Assembly: GCF_000196355.1 (NCBI RefSeq)
Contig: NC_007614.1
Coordinates: forward strand, 1,860,001 to 1,892,000
DNA length: 32,000 nt
Direction: 5' to 3'
Source of the DNA: Nitrosospira multiformis ATCC 25196
GTDB taxonomy: Bacteria > Pseudomonadota > Gammaproteobacteria > Burkholderiales > Nitrosomonadaceae
Of the stretch, positions 3,662-9,885 are shown piece after piece (the first letter of the stretch is position 1; every line of letters starts with the position of its first letter). The notes below the pieces were generated by a model. It saw only the letters and a list, made by a program, of their open reading frames with translations. It did not search any database and had not been told where the DNA came from. The translations under genes were made by a program, and so were the position numbers.

Positions 3662-3689
3662 CCGTACGATCAAACCCTTAGACTCCGAA

Positions 3690-4082
3690 ATCTAAAGTTT
3701 TCCGAGTAGTTCAACCTTATAAAGCCTCATTTTCCCTTGTCCCATGGGGTTCCCCAAGTGGACGATCTGCGAGTGCTCAGCGGGATTATTTACGTGATAA
3801 GGAACGGCCGTAATGGAAGGACGCTCCCCAAAACCACGACCCGCACAAGGCGCTCTATAATCGCTTCGCGCGTTGGAGCGGATGAGCGTTTTCACCCGCA
3901 TTTTTGCGGGACTGGCCAAGCCAGAACACGGACTGGCTGATGATTGACCCGCGCATCTCAAGCCACGTCCTACGGCGCTCAGCCCGTTAAAAAGGAGATG
4001 TCTCCCGCTGTATCGGACGTACTAAGGGCGCCTGAACTCCAAACTTCACGCCGTCTGCGATGGCTGGGGAAATCCTCTCGTC
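3690..4082 (+). pseudogene. Degraded, 3'-truncated remnant of an IS5-family (IS427-group) transposase gene, related to the intact IS at 21717..22559
   Basis: Frames give PLSHGVPQVDDLRVLSGIIYVIRNG (intact copy: PLSHGVPRVDDLRVISGIIYVIRNG). After frameshifts they give KGA-LNSKLHAVCDGWGNPL (intact: KGGLNSKLHVVCDGQGKP). There are multiple frame breaks and no recognisable terminal inverted repeats. Confidence 0.75.
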
Positions 4083-4278
4083 CGGTTGCATAAAAGTGTT
4101 GACCTATGATTTCCTCAGTCGTATAGCCTTTAAACCTCTGCGCACCAACATTCCAACTACAGACGCGACCTTCGCGGGCTGAGCATGCCCAGCGCGCAGT
4201 CAGTGACCCTGGCAATATAAATAGCCGAAAGCGTTCTGATTCAGCATATTGACTCGATAGAAGCAGGAGAAGGTACCA
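4083..4278 (-). pseudogene. PAS (sensory-box) domain fragment, truncated where it meets the IS remnant
   Basis: Minus-strand frame reads SERFRLFILPGSLTARWACSAREGRVCSWNVGAQRFKGYTTEEIIGQHFYATGRED. This resembles the common PAS S-box pattern ERFRLL...D..GRV.SWN.GA.R.KGY..EEIIG.HF. There is no start or downstream kinase/output domain, and the frame is closed by a stop upstream at 4279-4281. Confidence 0.45.
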
Positions 4279-4365
4279 TTACGAATAATCCGGTTCTGTT
4301 GCAATGTGGAAAGAAAAACAACGCGATGGCAAATCAGCAAAAGTTGACGGATGTCATCATAAATA

Positions 4366-4413
4366 CACTTAAAACATAAACAAGTTTACAAAGTTTCGAA
4401 ATTCACATATTCT
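4366..4413 (+). promoter_or_regulatory. Putative promoter of paralog 1: conserved box CACTTAAAACATA, -35 TTTACA, 17-nt spacer, -10 TATTCT
   Basis: Box at 4366..4378, TTTACA at 4385..4390, TATTCT at 4408..4413. The same architecture occurs upstream of the other two paralogs. Confidence 0.45.
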
Positions 4414-4472
4414 TCACCCATAGAAGCTGGATGTTAACGTGACTGATCCGTTATCCAAAATGCTGAAGAGGT

Positions 4473-4913
4473 GTGATGATGAAGATCGATAAAATTATCG
4501 CTACTACGTTCTCCCTGCTCAGCTTTATAGTCGCGGTGAGCTTTCCCGTTCCGGCAACGGCCGAGGCGGAAAGTTTTGATGTCGATGCAGCGTCGCGTAA
4601 CGCGGTGACCAGAAGTGATCACGAAGCTGTCGCCAGATATTACGACAACGCGGCCGTGGAGATGCATGCAAAAGCACAAGAGCAGAAACGCCTGCTCGAG
4701 CAGTATGAGGATAAAAGCTATCTCTACGGTAGAGAAGCCCAGGACATGCTGGCCCATACTTACGCATTGGCACGCAAGTATGAGAAGGAGACGCAGGCCA
4801 ATACGAGGGAAGCAGCCCTGCATCGGCAAATGGCTGCGCAACTCGAAGAGAACACTCCCCTCACCCCCAGTGGCAGTCTTCAAAAGCTGAGCACGATTTC
4901 AGACCTGCATTAG
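4473..4913 (+). CDS. Exported helical protein, uncharacterised family, paralog 1 (signal peptide ...VPATA/EAE)
   Basis: 146-aa ORF. The likely ATG is at 4476, after GAGG. It has a hydrophobic N-terminal signal and a ~75-aa core shared with 5883..6359 and 8955..9383 (YE[ED]K.YLYG..AQD...HT.AL..KYE......REAA.HRQ). Confidence 0.8.
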   Translation: MMMKIDKIIATTFSLLSFIVAVSFPVPATAEAESFDVDAASRNAVTRSDHEAVARYYDNAAVEMHAKAQEQKRLLEQYEDKSYLYGREAQDMLAHTYALARKYEKETQANTREAALHRQMAAQLEENTPLTPSGSLQKLSTISDLH

Positions 4914-5259
4914 GCTCTGTTCCTGCCTGAGTTAACCTCAGGATAATGTAATCGGAAACGGCACTGTACGGATGAACACCTGTATATTGCTATCAATGTT
5001 TCATGCCTTCAGGCTATCTTACCCCTCGGTTCCGGGAATACTTTCCCTCTTTTCTGAATTGTTGCGGAATCTCAACCGTTACAAAACCCGCTGGACCCTC
5101 AAAATTTTCTACGTCACTCTGGAACAACGTCCCAGTAAACGCCTTTCTGATCAAGCAAAAAGCTCAATGCCGGATCAGTCATTTTTCGACTGATCGAAAA
5201 ACGGAAATTAACGCAAGATTGACAAGCCTCAACTAAAGCAAGTTTTTATCGAAAAATAC

Positions 5260-5288
5260 TTTACAAATGTGATTTCATCACATATTCT
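5260..5288 (+). promoter_or_regulatory. Putative promoter (TTTACA-17-TATTCT), a duplicated copy of the paralog-1 promoter core
   Basis: TTTACA at 5260..5265 and TATTCT at 5283..5288. The string TCACATATTCTTCAC is shared exactly with 4403..4417. Confidence 0.4.
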
Positions 5289-5363
5289 TCACACATGCTT
5301 CACAAACGTAGTAAGAAGTAACAAACGCAGCTTCAAAAAGTAGCTTTTTTCGCTATTGATTTC

Positions 5364-5564
5364 GTGGAGGGTATGATGATTAAGGGCAGAACAGTGGGCA
5401 TTTTCTATTCGATGAGCCTGGCCGTTGCGCTGGTTTTTGCTGGGTTTAATGCTGCGGGTGTCGCCACTGCCAAAGAAAACAGCTATTCCATCGCAACTGT
5501 CGATAAGAGCAATTACAGAGTAGCCGCCTTACAAAAATCCGTTGTACTTACAGAAGTTCGCTAA
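5364..5564 (+). CDS. Small exported protein (about 63 aa from the ATG at 5373/5376), function unknown
   Basis: GGAGG lies just upstream of ATGATG. The signal-peptide-like N-terminus is MMIKGRTVGIFYSMSLAVALVFAGFNAAGVATA/KE. The 5' end (ATGATGA.TAAG) resembles the 5' end of paralog 1. It lacks the family core. Confidence 0.4.
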   Translation: MEGMMIKGRTVGIFYSMSLAVALVFAGFNAAGVATAKENSYSIATVDKSNYRVAALQKSVVLTEVR

Positions 5565-5785
5565 CATTCTTTCAAAATAGAACAAACGCGCCGATGCAAT
5601 GTTGAGTGTATTTTTCTGCCCATTGCATCGGCACCCTCCTGGTAACATCCTTCCTCAGTAAAAATCCCTGCGCTATTGCCGCAGGATGCGCATATTTCCC
5701 CGGGATAACCGCTACGGCACTCGGCTCCATTCGCTATCCGCCGGGCTCTCGAGAACCTGGCTGTAACCCTGTACCTTGCCTGAGC

Positions 5786-5831
5786 CACTTTAAACATAAA
5801 AATTGACGAAGCAACTTACATAAACTAGCAT
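5786..5831 (+). promoter_or_regulatory. Putative promoter of paralog 2: box CACTTTAAACATA, -35 TTGACG, 17-nt spacer, -10 TAGCAT
   Basis: Box at 5786..5798, TTGACG at 5803..5808, TAGCAT at 5826..5831. The -10 is weak. Confidence 0.4.
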
Positions 5832-5882
5832 TAAGCACGTTCACCGTTTTTTACCTGCTAAATCCTTTGCTCCGGTAAAACA

Positions 5883-6359
5883 ATGAGACAGGCTTGCCCT
5901 CTGCTTATCATATTGATTTTACTAATACCCGTTGCCCAGGCGGCTGATCATTCTGGTATCCGGATCACCCAGACCCTTGCACAGAATGATGAGCAGAACC
6001 CAAATGCTCGCGAGGTGGTCGAGAGATATTTCGAAGATGAGCTCATGAAAAAACATGAGACGGTTGCCAAATACTACGAAGATGAAGCAGGAAAGTCACG
6101 GGCGAAGATAAGGGAACTGAGGGGGATGCTTGCGCATTACGAGGAAAAAAGCTACCTGTACGGAAAAAAAGCCCAGGACCTGCAAGCACATACTGAAGCC
6201 CTGGTAAGAAAATATGAAGAGGCTGCAAAGGCAGATGCAAGAGAAGCTGCCTCTCACCGTCAAATTGCTTTGGCATTTAAAGAAAAAAATCACCCTGATT
6301 CGAAAACTCAAAAAGTAAGCATTGTTGAATCCTATGGTTCGACTGTTCCATTAAAATAA
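5883..6359 (+). CDS. Exported helical protein, uncharacterised family, paralog 2 (signal peptide ...PVAQA/ADH)
   Basis: 158-aa ORF. Signal peptide MRQACPLLIILILLIPVAQA. Core HETVAKYYEDEAGKSRAKIRELRGMLAHYEEKSYLYGKKAQDLQAHTEALVRKYEEAAKADAREAASHRQIA. Confidence 0.85.
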   Translation: MRQACPLLIILILLIPVAQAADHSGIRITQTLAQNDEQNPNAREVVERYFEDELMKKHETVAKYYEDEAGKSRAKIRELRGMLAHYEEKSYLYGKKAQDLQAHTEALVRKYEEAAKADAREAASHRQIALAFKEKNHPDSKTQKVSIVESYGSTVPLK

Positions 6360-6760
6360 GAGTAAAGAGCGGAGGCAGGAGCATACGGAGAAATTCCAGC
6401 GGCATAGCCAAACTCCCACTTTTTCCCTTCATCGCCGCGGACGGCCGCGTCCTGCGCCAGTCCATCAAGATACTTCCCCAGATTCCCTTACTGACGACTT
6501 ATTGGAGCCGGCTGGAATCCGCTAAATGATGATGGCCTGGAGGCTACCGATATCCGCTGAAACCTGGTCGTTTGTCCTGCCTATCAACTGCCGAGCCGGC
6601 TTCCAGCCATGATATGTTGAACAGGTTATCTGGAATATGAGCATTACAAACAATTACCGCGATAATCAGCCGGTCCACAATAATTTATGAGCGGTGGATT
6701 CCAGATAAATAAGAAGCGAATGGATTTGAGCCTTCGATATTCAACTTCTCAAGGATACTT

Positions 6761-7165
6761 ATGCAAAATTTCCTCCGAAATGATGATTTAGGTAAATTGA
6801 TTCTGCGCCTGACTGTAGGAGTATTGATACTATTTCACGGGCTGCACAAAATACTTAACCCCGCATCCCTTGACTTCATCAGCAAGCAACTGACCGGCAT
6901 CGATTTGCCACCCGTACTGGCTTACGGCGTTTACCTCGGTGAAGTCGTCGCGCCGCTAATGGTGATCTTCGGCCTTTTCTCGCGTCTCGGCGGTTTGCTG
7001 ATCTTCGGTAACATGATTTTTGCGCTTTTATTGGCCCACTCTGATCAGTTATTTACGTTCACCAACACGGGAGGCTGGGCGCTTGAATTGCAAGGGTTTT
7101 ATTTATTCTCGGGTCTTGCGATATTTTTCCTGGGTAGCGGAAGATGGGCCGTCCGGCAAGACTGA
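6761..7165 (+). CDS. DoxX-family inner-membrane protein
   Basis: 134-aa ORF with four predicted TM helices. N-terminal DLGKLILRLTVGVLILFHGLHKI is typical of DoxX. An AAGGA RBS lies 5 nt upstream. Confidence 0.8.
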   Translation: MQNFLRNDDLGKLILRLTVGVLILFHGLHKILNPASLDFISKQLTGIDLPPVLAYGVYLGEVVAPLMVIFGLFSRLGGLLIFGNMIFALLLAHSDQLFTFTNTGGWALELQGFYLFSGLAIFFLGSGRWAVRQD

Positions 7166-7228
7166 CCAAGCCCCCCATGTCAATGTTCATTATGGTTACA
7201 CATCAAAATAACAAAGGAATCTCTACTG

Positions 7229-7942
7229 ATGGAATCAACCGATCTCCGACAATACAGATGGCATGAATACGCCGACCTGACCGCCCTTCAGGATGCAGCG
7301 GTGGCTGCTATCCTGGATAGCGCCGCCTCTGCCATTCAGGAGCGTGGACGCTTTAATCTCGTTCTTGCCGGGGGTGAATCACCGCGTGCAATCTATCGGA
7401 GATTATGCAGCGCCCCAGCAGATTGGTCTCTCTGGCATATCTATTATGGAGACGAACGCTGCATGCCACCCACTCAGGAAGAACTGAATTCCCATATGGT
7501 AGAGGAAGCATGGCTTAGCCATGTGCCCATTCCTCCAGTCCAGATTCATACCATCCCCAATGGTCCTCGCGCAGATAAAGCTGCGGAAGCGTACGCACAA
7601 ACACTGCGCGGTGCAGGTTATTTCGACTTGACGCTGCTCGGGCTCGGTTCGGATGGCCACACCGCAAGCCTGTTCCCGGGTAATGATTGGGGAATGGCGC
7701 CGGATTCGCCCGATACACTGGCAATATTCAATTCCCCCAAGCGGCCCCCACAGCGCGTGTCACTGAGTGCGGCACGTTTAAATCGTTCGCGAAGGATAAT
7801 ATTTCTGGTAAGCGGTGAATCAAAGCATAAGGCGGTAGCAAGGTGGCGCGCCGGGGAGAATATACCGGCCAGGGCTATAATGGGAGAAAACGGTGTGGAT
7901 ATACTTGTGGAATCGACGTTACTGTTGCCGTCGAAGGGGTGA
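7229..7942 (+). CDS. pgl: 6-phosphogluconolactonase
   Basis: 237-aa ORF with FNLVLAGGESP, YYGDERC and LLGLGSDGHTASLFPG motifs of the DevB/Pgl family. Confidence 0.88.
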   Translation: MESTDLRQYRWHEYADLTALQDAAVAAILDSAASAIQERGRFNLVLAGGESPRAIYRRLCSAPADWSLWHIYYGDERCMPPTQEELNSHMVEEAWLSHVPIPPVQIHTIPNGPRADKAAEAYAQTLRGAGYFDLTLLGLGSDGHTASLFPGNDWGMAPDSPDTLAIFNSPKRPPQRVSLSAARLNRSRRIIFLVSGESKHKAVARWRAGENIPARAIMGENGVDILVESTLLLPSKG

Positions 7943-7983
7943 TGGGATTTAAATCAATAAAAAATAAAATAGAAAATAGAGGC

Positions 7984-8013
7984 AAAAAAAAGGAGTAGAA
8001 ACTACTCCTTTTT
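7984..8013. terminator. Bidirectional rho-independent terminator between convergent pgl and the regulator gene
   Basis: An A8 run, GGAGTAG, loop AAA, CTACTCC, then a T5 run (AAAAAAAAGGAGTAGAAACTACTCCTTTTT). A U-tract follows the stem on both strands. The stem overlaps the stop codon of 8002..8643. Confidence 0.65.
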
Positions 8014-8643
8014 GGATACAAACCTGAATCGACATAATTCTCCCCCGCGAGCCATACATTCATGTTGCTCAACCTTGCTGTCGGTAAAAGTTTCCATGAG
8101 GCCGCGGTCGAGGTGGCAGATTTCCATATCTTTTGCCGCCATCTGGTGGAATACGCAATTATCCGCTTCAATCACCTTTTCGCCGTTTGGCAAGGTAGCA
8201 CTTTTCGCGTTGTAGCCAAGCTGATCCATTACTTCTGTCAGCTTGTCAATTTTTTCCTCCTTTGTATTCAAGTCCGGATATTGACCCCGTATCTGCTCTG
8301 CGATACCTGCACCGATTTCGGACAAACGCTTACCCATGTTTTCAACGCCTTCTTCGCGCCGAACCGAGGCCAACACCAGTTGGGCCAGCCAGGAATACTG
8401 GCGGGGAAAACTCTCCTTTCCAAGTTCGGTAAGAACGTAAAGCTGTTGAGGCCTTCCGCCCCCTGACGGGCGTGTATTTCCAGCCGTTACCAGACCGGCG
8501 CCCTCCAGGGAAGAAAGATGTTGCCGAACTGCGTTTCTTGTAATCTCCAGACCTTTTGAAAGTTCATCCACGCTCAGGCCTGGCCTGCTCCCACGCAAAA
8601 GCTTGAGCAATTGCTTCTGCCGTTCACCTATCGTATTTAGCAT
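8002..8643 (-). CDS. ArsR-family (COG2345-type) winged-helix transcriptional regulator with a Cys/His-containing C-terminal sensor-like domain
   Basis: 213-aa ORF. The N-terminal wHTH is LSVDELSKGLEITRNAVRQHLSSLEGAGLV...GGRPQQLYVLTELG. The C-terminus has ADNCVFH, EICHLD and HECMARGGELCRFRF, as in COG2345 regulators. It is divergent from paralog 3. Confidence 0.8.
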   Translation of the reverse strand: MLNTIGERQKQLLKLLRGSRPGLSVDELSKGLEITRNAVRQHLSSLEGAGLVTAGNTRPSGGGRPQQLYVLTELGKESFPRQYSWLAQLVLASVRREEGVENMGKRLSEIGAGIAEQIRGQYPDLNTKEEKIDKLTEVMDQLGYNAKSATLPNGEKVIEADNCVFHQMAAKDMEICHLDRGLMETFTDSKVEQHECMARGGELCRFRFVSKKE

Positions 8644-8726
8644 CTGATATACCCCCTTCCACCCCCGTCATATGAGAATTAGCGGCTTCATTATAGACTA
8701 CTGGCAGCCTGCGCCTTGTCTTTAGA

Positions 8727-8774
8727 CACTTTAAACATATAATAGTTGACAAAATAGCTATAATTTCTTACAAT
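8727..8774 (+). promoter_or_regulatory. Putative promoter of paralog 3: box CACTTTAAACATA, -35 TTGACA, 17-nt spacer, -10 TACAAT
   Basis: Box at 8727..8739, TTGACA at 8746..8751, TACAAT at 8769..8774. It is near-consensus sigma70 and implies a ~180-nt leader. Confidence 0.5.
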
Positions 8775-8844
8775 TCCTTCATAAATAAAGAATAATCGGG
8801 GCCCGATCCGCCTTGATTCTGCTTTCACCCTAACCCTGCCCCTG

Positions 8845-8869
8845 ATTTCAGGCAGAGCTGTCCTGAAAT
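8845..8869 (+). promoter_or_regulatory. Inverted repeat / hairpin in the predicted 5' leader of paralog 3
   Basis: ATTTCAGG (8845..8852), a 9-nt loop, then CCTGAAAT (8862..8869). The 8-bp stem is perfect. Function unknown. Confidence 0.3.
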
Positions 8870-8954
8870 TGTGATTTATTCTACTCCACTGTTTTTTGTA
8901 ATCTTTTCGCTATCTTTTGGCATTAACCGCATTGATTTTAAAGGAAAGTGCGAC

Positions 8955-9383
8955 ATGAAAACAAGGAGAATTTTCGCCATTTTATCCTTCAGTTTACTGG
9001 CTGCATGTGCGCAAATGAGCCCGCATGAGGCTGTCCAGAACACGAATATTCGCAGGGCAGCACAGAACGCCAGAACTCCCAGTGATCATGATGCGTTGAG
9101 CAACTATTTTGAGAACGCGGCCAAGGAAATGCAAACCAAGGTTGATGAGCAAAAAAAGCTACTCGAGTATTATGAAGAGAAGGGGTATCTCTACGGACGC
9201 CAAGCGCAGGATTTGAAGTCGCATACCGCAGCCCTCCTTCATAAATACGAGGCAAATGTGGAAGAGAACATCAGGGAAGCTGCCGCCCACCGGCAAATGG
9301 CGCTAGAGCAGGCGAAACGTGAATATGCCATACGTGAAGGACAGACTGTGAACGCGGAGGGTCGCGCTCACCCCTCGAAGTAA
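8955..9383 (+). CDS. Lipoprotein member of the uncharacterised exported helical family, paralog 3
   Basis: The ATG at 8955 is internal to track ORF 8871..9383. MKTRRIFAILSFSLLAAC carries a lipobox (LAAC). Core HDALSNYFENAAKEMQTKVDEQKKLLEYYEEKGYLYGRQAQDLKSHTAALLHKYEANVEENIREAAAHRQMA. Confidence 0.85.
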   Translation: MKTRRIFAILSFSLLAACAQMSPHEAVQNTNIRRAAQNARTPSDHDALSNYFENAAKEMQTKVDEQKKLLEYYEEKGYLYGRQAQDLKSHTAALLHKYEANVEENIREAAAHRQMALEQAKREYAIREGQTVNAEGRAHPSK

Positions 9384-9444
9384 GCAGAAGGCGCAGTAAA
9401 AATATCGGGAATCCTCTTGCCGCGGCCCACCCACCGTCTTTTTC

Positions 9445-9885
9445 AGTCCCTCCAGGCAGGGAAACGTGGCAAGCTCATGAAAAAATCCATATCGTGGTTA
9501 GGCCAGAGCTCGCACTTTTCGCTGCTCTCCAGCGCCTTTAACTTCCGGATACTGGCCAGCACCAGGGACGCGTTATCCTGCCAGCAATATCCCGGCGCAA
9601 TTTCCTCCACCAGATTCTCCCTCAGATCGGCAGCGGCTCAACCAGGGGATGCATGGGATCAAATGACGTGCGCAAGATGGGATCGGAAATCTTGCGATAG
9701 TCGCAACCCGTATCATATAAGATGCGTCCGTTCGACGTTTCGATCAAATAAGCAAGAATTGGCGCCGCGATAAATTCCCCATGCCCACGGTTACGGGTCG
9801 AAATGGTCTTTTCATAACGGATTGTTCCCGTCAGCAGCGGCCAGACTTTTGTGATATGAGGCATATCGGTTCGCTGGTTCGGCAT
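9445..9885 (-). pseudogene. MBL-fold N-acyl-homoserine-lactonase-family gene with internal deletion/frameshift
   Basis: The N-terminal 87-aa ORF (…PILAYLIETSNGRILYDTGCD…) stops at 9622. A second frame continues with NASLVLASIRKLKALESSEKCELWPNHDMDFFHELATFP (the C-terminal HD region). The HxHxDH metal motif and roughly 100 aa are missing. Confidence 0.5.

Follow-up and report, generated by a model that had tools for sequence, protein, structure and literature searches.

Three genes of one paralogous family, which encode exported helical proteins, lie within a 32,000-nt stretch of the Nitrosospira multiformis ATCC 25196 genome (NC_007614.1, positions 1,860,001 to 1,892,000; hereafter the window, G000:C1:1860001-1892000), and each of them is preceded by the same 13-nt box, CACTT[T/A]AAACATA, close to a -35 hexamer. 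This locus raises the question of what the box is and whether it is read by the product of the regulator gene at 8002-8643, which is transcribed divergently from the third paralog. An earlier note on the window had proposed a shared promoter module and a small regulon of the three paralogs. The module holds up as a sigma-70-type promoter with its -35 and -10 elements, but the functional unit attached to it is a 35-bp block overlapping the -35 hexamer and not the 13-mer. We favor, with moderate confidence, the reading that this block is the operator of an iron-sulfur (Fe-S) repressor, the divergently encoded COG2345 regulator, and that it defines a regulon of four genes.

Re-reading of the window sequence shows that the coordinates given in the earlier note for the boxes and for the -35 and -10 elements are all correct. 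All elements of the three paralogs lie on the plus strand, and each -10 hexamer follows its -35 hexamer after 17 bp. Upstream of paralog 1 (P1; 4476-4913, with a signal peptide ending in ATAEA), the control block from -60 to -26 occupies 4360-4394 and holds the box CACTTAAAACATA at 4366-4378 and the -35 hexamer TTTACA at 4385-4390, followed by AAGT; the -10 hexamer TATTCT lies at 4408-4413, and its TAnnnT position is conserved in a genus-wide alignment. The control block of paralog 2 (P2; exported helical protein, 5883-6359) spans 5786-5812, with the box CACTTTAAACATA at 5786-5798, a linker shortened to A5 and the -35 hexamer TTGACG at 5803-5808, and the -10 hexamer TAGCAT lies at 5826-5831. 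Paralog 3 (P3; 8955-9383) encodes a lipoprotein with the lipobox LLAAC and a predicted long helical hairpin. Its control block, again from -60 to -26, lies at 8721-8755 in the regulator-paralog intergenic region, with the box CACTTTAAACATA at 8727-8739, TTGACA at 8746-8751 and the -10 hexamer TACAAT at 8769-8774, and this promoter matches the consensus at 11 of 12 positions. The distances from box to -35 are 6, 4 and 6 bp for P1, P2 and P3, within the 4 to 6 bp originally reported, and a promoter-scan program recovers all three promoters.

As the earlier note had stated, the box does not occur elsewhere in the window; there is no further copy at two or fewer mismatches. The whole-genome search that it had suggested as a check (3,184,243 bp plus three small plasmids, 54% G+C) finds only three exact copies of CACTT[T/A]AAACATA in 3.23 Mb, each in front of a window paralog, and the chance expectation estimated from base composition is about 0.1 copies per genome. 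A fourth, unlinked family copy, C1:1619649, carries a box with two mismatches, CACTTTATACATT, and TTGACA at the same spacing. In relaxed whole-genome scans, the box-plus-(-35) module is found at P1, P2, P3 and the paralog at C1:1619533 only. The proposed regulon of three paralogs is thus correct in its shared module but not in its extent, because the genome has four such promoters, and the family comprises 11 copies (one of them broken), seven of which lack the box. The members without the box have unrelated upstream regions.

An alignment anchored on TTGACA was built from the intergenic regions of the regulator loci and from promoters found by pattern, comprising about 50-60 distinct promoters of the genus. 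It shows high information content from -60 to -26, which defines the block TTaAGACACTTTaaaCATAAaAAAGTTGACAAAgT. The -35 TTGACA is near-invariant among these promoters and, beyond the block, T-12 (46/53 promoters), A-11 (44/53) and T-7 (45/53) are also conserved, forming TAnnnT 17 bp after TTGACA. Conservation is absent from the leader, from the DNA further upstream than -60 and from the spacer of 17 bp, which carries little information. Such a pair of -35 and -10 hexamers at 17 +/- 1 bp, conserved around a variable spacer, indicates that the module is a sigma-70 promoter as far as its sequence can tell. The middle AAA of the 13-mer varies in orthologous promoters (AAA, AGG, ACA, CGA, TAC, GAT and others), while the bases flanking the 13-mer are conserved. 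Within the block, A/T tracts occupy -51 to -46, -42 to -37 and -30 to -28 and stand alongside ACACT and GTTG elements; G-56, C-54, C-52 and C-45 are invariant or near-invariant, and AAgT after the -35 is conserved. In a dyad-symmetry test, the best axis lies at -39.5, with the arms ACTTT/AAAGT, and scores about 2 standard deviations above the mean of all axes, with three axes nearly equal. The four promoters of this genome have only the conserved block positions in common. Because the remaining promoter DNA has diverged, their similarity is not due to recent duplication or gene conversion. Read from the alignment, the block is the phylogenetic footprint of a predicted sigma-70 promoter with an attached, protein-sized site.

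A reading of the block as an extracytoplasmic function (ECF) sigma promoter with GACACTT as its -35 was rejected, because TAnnnT is conserved 17 bp from TTGACA. An Rfam scan of 4000-9600 returned nothing relevant and no known RNA element, and the NsrR, IHF and Fur consensus sequences show no convincing match to the block.

The module is specific both to the genus and to the paralog family. The search pattern CACTTW-N3-CAT-N5-7-TTGAC occurs 90 times in 39 of 43 Nitrosospira genomes, compared with 4 occurrences of the reversed pattern used as a control. Among 200 genomes of other genera of the order, the pattern occurs 25 times and the control 13 times, mostly with G+C-rich linkers, which amounts to background. 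A family gene lies directly downstream at 24 of 30 sampled pattern sites; the other six comprise one site cut off by a contig end immediately behind the start of a lipoprotein, four that no longer have their paralog and one apparent chance match. Of 11 relaxed matches in another four genomes, 10 stand in front of family genes. The family itself is much larger than its box-bearing part, with 5-24 copies per Nitrosospira genome and the module on only 1-5 of them. In a family tree whose sampling is biased towards box-bearing loci, the box-bearing genes fall into at least three orthogroups (the P3 type, the C1:1619649 type and the P1/P2 type) that are interleaved with members lacking the box. Further box-bearing paralogs often cluster within a few kb of the regulator in the genomes of the genus. 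Four loci of other Nitrosospira genomes (L048, L050, L053 and L061) keep the module and the promoter and have lost the downstream paralog; the regulator adjoins the orphan module in L048, L050 and L053, and L061 keeps a stub (MKTRTSS, then a stop).

The regulator gene lies on the minus strand, is single-copy in the genome and encodes a protein of 213 amino acids. The earlier note had described it as an ArsR-type COG2345 winged helix-turn-helix (wHTH) protein with a Cys-rich C-terminal domain, and Pfam matches and invariant motifs bear this out. HTH_5, HTH_11 and HTH_20 match above their cut-offs, and the C-terminal domain matches MetOD1 above and V4R below the cut-off. An AlphaFold2 model places helices at residues 25-32 and 36-48 and wing strands at 52-58 and 66-71. 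A Foldseek fold search returns wHTH regulators only, and searches of the PDB by sequence and by fold give generic wHTH matches and no full-length relative. The COG2345/SufR-like family has been defined from a cryo-electron microscopy structure, in which DNA is read by an R-R-H motif in helix 3 (R50 and H52 of Mycobacterium tuberculosis SufR) and by a GRP AT-hook inserted into A/T-rich minor grooves, and in which the [4Fe-4S] site has the form C-X12-C-X2-E...C (preprint 10.64898/2025.12.26.696629). The Nitrosospira regulator has the corresponding residues. According to the alignments, the R-R-H-type motif R40-Q41-H42 of the recognition helix is invariant, and so is the AT-hook G63-R64-P65, which lies in the wing within RPSGGGRPQQLY; C163-X12-C176-X2-D179, C196 and C204 are also invariant and would form the sensor site, as judged from sequence only.

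The helix-turn-helix and the GRP-hook wing are almost invariant across 29 genus copies and 121 homologues, and the near-identical DNA-binding domain in the 29 genus copies matches the constancy of the DNA block. Because this domain hardly varies, covariation between regulator residues and box variants gives no readout. Outside Nitrosospira, even the closest homologues share no more than 48% identity with the regulator (there are 651 cluster representatives at E < 1e-10), and a full-length alignment to the cyanobacterial SufR model TIGR02702 scores 57.3 bits against a cut-off of 178.8. A putative -10 of the regulator gene, TATAAT on the minus strand, lies at 8690-8695, where orthologous spacers have TATAAT or CATAAT, and no good -35 was seen for it. 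The box as the regulator's own promoter was rejected, since the regulator has its putative -10 at another position, whose distance varies, and boxes also stand at sites with no divergent gene.

The arrangement pointed out in the earlier note, with the regulator divergent from paralog 3 and sharing its intergenic region, is kept in the genus. Of 28 regulator loci fetched from other species (protein identity 76-100%), 21 have a P3-type paralog divergent to the regulator and the block in the shared spacer. The regulator is detected in 27 of 28 high-quality genomes of the genus. The only one without it, G056 (99% complete), yields no module in a search that tolerates 3 mismatches; the same relaxed search finds 3-4 modules in each of four genomes used for comparison. 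Five family genes remain in G056, none of them with a promoter of this type. The regulator, the module and the box-bearing paralogs are therefore present or absent as a unit, with the caveat that their co-absence is seen in one genome. No conserved candidate regulator besides the COG2345 gene was found beside the sites. In the sister genus, COG2345 homologues are 34-37% identical and do not track the paralog family; this comparison is uninformative on binding, but it does make clear that the family as a whole is not marked by the box.

The regulator-less genome also bears on the structure of the locus. On a 98.6-kb contig of G056 (L105, G056:C42:33000-43000), the syntenic orf2756, doxX and pgl are contiguous and lack the P1/P2 insert, and the regulator-P3 pair was not found in the approximately 5.5 kb beyond pgl. 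Because these three genes are contiguous there, comparison with 3662-6760 and 7943-9400 of the window marks the stretch with paralog 1, a mini-open reading frame (mini-ORF) and paralog 2, and likewise the regulator-paralog-3 pair, as accessory inserts flanking doxX-pgl.

Among the widespread COG2345 regulators, targets are known for SufR and ArnR alone, and each of these two acts as a repressor (10.64898/2025.12.26.696629). SufR is the [4Fe-4S] repressor of the suf operon (Mycobacterium tuberculosis Rv1460, Synechocystis, Streptomyces). Its site has a palindromic core, CAAC-N6-GTTG or ACACT-N5-TGTGA, flanked by A/T tracts, and 37 bp of DNA are resolved in the complex with the SufR dimer, in which A/T tracts flank a weakly specific core (10.64898/2025.12.26.696629). 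The Nitrosospira regulator resembles SufR in sequence, with a wHTH carrying R-x-H, a GRP AT-hook in the wing and C-X12-C-X2-(acidic) plus further Cys residues, and also in setting, with a gene divergent to a predicted target and an A/T-rich site of about 30-35 bp that overlaps the promoter. The block of about 35 bp is close in length to the 37 bp resolved with SufR, and it holds ACACT and GTTG, like the reported SufR half-sites. There are also clear differences. The Nitrosospira regulator has Asp in place of the Glu ligand and a fourth Cys, its predicted targets are exported helical proteins, and its site is no clear palindrome; the regulator gene is not located beside suf. Because sufB (C1:802370) lies 1.06 Mb away and has no site, the regulator is not SufR proper.

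ArnR, the nitric oxide (NO)-responsive [4Fe-4S] repressor of narKGHJI and hmp in Corynebacterium glutamicum, is likewise a non-SufR member that controls genes outside Fe-S assembly, and two A/T tracts lie within its footprint of about 30 bp. A response to NO would suit an organism that is itself a source of NO and nitrite. However, ArnR belongs to another phylum and has His as its fourth ligand, and no nar or hmp targets are seen in Nitrosospira; this comparison was made by description.

These results establish the sites, their uniqueness, conservation and specificity for the family, the hallmarks of the regulator and its co-distribution with the sites; that the regulator binds the block, the way in which it controls the genes, its cofactor and its signal are our inference. 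In the proposed mechanism, the strong sigma-70 promoters of the four family genes (TTGACA, 17 bp, TAnnnT) would carry the block as a built-in operator. By analogy with SufR, the regulator would bind as a dimer with an Fe-S cluster, its GRP AT-hooks reaching into the A/T tracts (TTTAAA, AAAAA and AAA) and its R-x-H helices lying on adjacent major grooves. As the site covers the -35, RNA polymerase would be kept out while the regulator is bound, and loss or modification of the cluster by oxidants, nitric oxide or iron shortage would release the four genes together. Repression by occlusion, relieved on cluster loss, appears to be the most economical model, and repression is preferred because of the near-consensus promoters and the precedents of SufR and ArnR. 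As a further step, which is conceivable but doubtful, a Nitrosospira-restricted SufR-like Fe-S regulator might sense by-products of ammonia oxidation (nitric oxide, hydroxylamine-derived or oxidative stress) and control nitrifier-specific exported helical proteins via an asymmetric, promoter-embedded AT-hook site. If true, nitrifiers would have a new kind of envelope stress response, and the COG2345 family would gain its third type of target set.

Several observations weigh against a repressor-operator pair. The co-distribution is confounded by shared descent and by the physical linkage of the regulator to one site; the co-absence of regulator and module rests on a single genome; and three incomplete genomes (62-85% complete) have the box and no detected regulator. 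The dyad test reveals no clear palindrome in the block, although a homodimer is expected to prefer symmetry, and the right dyad arm is missing from the P3-type sites. The invariant GACAC and CAT argue for base readout, in contrast to the mostly shape-based readout reported for SufR. In addition, the distance from the block to the putative regulator -10 varies from 25 to 48 bp across species, so that autoregulation is no more than a possibility.

Some of these points would suit a different, unlinked factor that binds the block, for example a monomeric or tandem-binding one, with the COG2345 gene co-regulated or simply a passenger. A homodimer would not usually read bases conserved as asymmetrically as these (GACACTTT...CATA), only one of the four sites of this genome adjoins the regulator gene, and the incomplete genomes with a box and an undetected regulator point the same way. 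We nevertheless consider such a factor unlikely, given that the regulator-module-paralog arrangement is kept in 21 of 28 loci, that module, box-bearing paralogs and regulator are jointly absent from G056, and that no second candidate regulator is conserved beside the sites. The block might also need no dedicated factor at all and be an intrinsic promoter feature inherited through duplication, either a UP-like A/T element read by the alpha subunit of RNA polymerase or DNA curvature. UP elements have an A/T-only consensus from -59 to -38 and are read by the alpha C-terminal domain. The block lies directly upstream of the -35 and overlaps it, it is like a proximal UP subsite in its position from -40 to -60 and in having an A-tract at -42 to -37, and the box genes fall into few orthogroups, so that duplication explains part of the sharing. 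Yet it is A-rich only from -42 to -37, and the invariant or near-invariant C/G at -56, -54, -52 and -45 and the conserved AAgT after a consensus -35 are not features of a UP element. Moreover, the module is absent from family members with other promoters and is found only in genomes where the regulator is found, and the remaining promoter DNA has fully diverged, so that gene conversion or recent duplication is insufficient. An intrinsic feature is accordingly a distinctly unlikely explanation.

It is also quite improbable that the same regulator binds the block but activates transcription from a class-II-type site centered near -40. The earlier note had thought a class-II activator site or a UP-like element typical of the position of the box; the position abutting or overlapping the -35 stands, but both assignments have become less likely in view of the near-invariant consensus -35, the optimal spacing and the invariant C/G positions. 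A class-II activator site is centered near -41.5 in a promoter with a poor -35, and promoters with a consensus -35 at optimal spacing normally need no activator. In favor of activation, the weak dyad at -39.5 overlaps the -35 and comes close to where class-II sites classically lie, the conservation of TTGACAAAGT could reflect an operator rather than a -35, and in this strain the -35 of P1 (TTTACA) and the -10 of P2 are comparatively weak. Nearly all promoters, however, have TTGACA at the optimal 17 bp from TAnnnT, and the two COG2345 members with known targets repress. Repression by the COG2345 regulator through the block therefore remains the reading that we prefer.

The promoters of the window also show variation among close strains. 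The -35 of paralog 1 (4385-4390) is TTTACA here and TTGAC in G007, G012 and G020, and one G-to-T change is predicted to have weakened this promoter in the present strain. The A-run between the paralog-2 box and its -35 (5799-5802) has 5 A here, 6 in G012 and 7 in G007 and G020; this slippage polymorphism shifts the phasing of box and -35 by 1-2 bp, and the regulators of those strains are 95-100% identical. At 8716-8743, in this strain only, an A-to-T change converts CATAAAATAG to CATATAATAG and yields a second promoter-like pair, TTGTCT-16-TATAAT, which overlaps the box and is not conserved among relatives. A copy of the paralog-1 core promoter without the box (TTTACA, 17 bp, TATTCT; 5260-5288, plus strand; TTTACA-17-TATTCTTCAC) precedes the mini-ORF at 5376-5564, which encodes a 62-residue signal-peptide protein lacking the family core. 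The promoter at 5260-5288 is a natural box-less control.

The new element here is that a betaproteobacterial nitrifier has a COG2345 regulator for which an operator and a new set of targets can be predicted. The predicted regulator-operator-regulon system resides in a cultured ammonia oxidizer of soil and is testable, since it offers four defined promoters, a box-less control promoter, natural spacing variants and a regulator-less species. It provides a first functional handle on an uncharacterized family of exported proteins that is expanded in Nitrosospira, and if an Fe-S sensor controls this family, its role in soil nitrifiers probably concerns stress at the cell envelope, be it redox, nitrosative or metal stress. 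Systems of this kind are known, and the gain is incremental unless the signal proves to be nitrification-specific.

The predicted target proteins are lipoproteins or signal-peptide proteins with an invariant core containing His, Tyr and Asp, and they are confidently predicted as long helical hairpins. Pfam and NCBIfam searches with the paralogs return no family, and a fold search with paralog 3 returns generic helical hairpins only and gives no functional lead. A literature search for N. multiformis expression data covering these genes, made without their locus tags, yielded nothing of use. The predicted leader of paralog 3 (8782-8954) is about 173 nt long in this lineage, compared with about 60-75 nt in most orthologues, and it holds an inverted repeat, ATTTCAGG...CCTGAAAT, at approximately 8845-8869 that has no Rfam match.

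Some family members carry a second promoter module. It is located at C1:849350-849548 (L002) and, on the minus strand, at C1:2817778-2817950 (L003), and consists of a palindrome, CTAAGGGTTTCCCTTAG, followed by GGGTTTCCCCAATATAC; it is also found at L098 and L099 of G056 and at L070, L071 and L073 of the sister genus. Family members of the sister genus and the copies C1:849548 and C1:2817778 share a module of GGTTTCCC repeats plus CCCCAATAT, and in the sister genus its form is that of repeated GGTTTCC units plus CCCCAATAT. This second module probably marks a second, older regulon of the family. A LuxR/FixJ-type response-regulator gene terminates just upstream of the C1:849548 copy. Finally, the family copies at C1:77089-77463 and C1:679887-680261, 600 kb apart, are identical and have identical upstream sequence, and they are presumably part of a larger repeated element.

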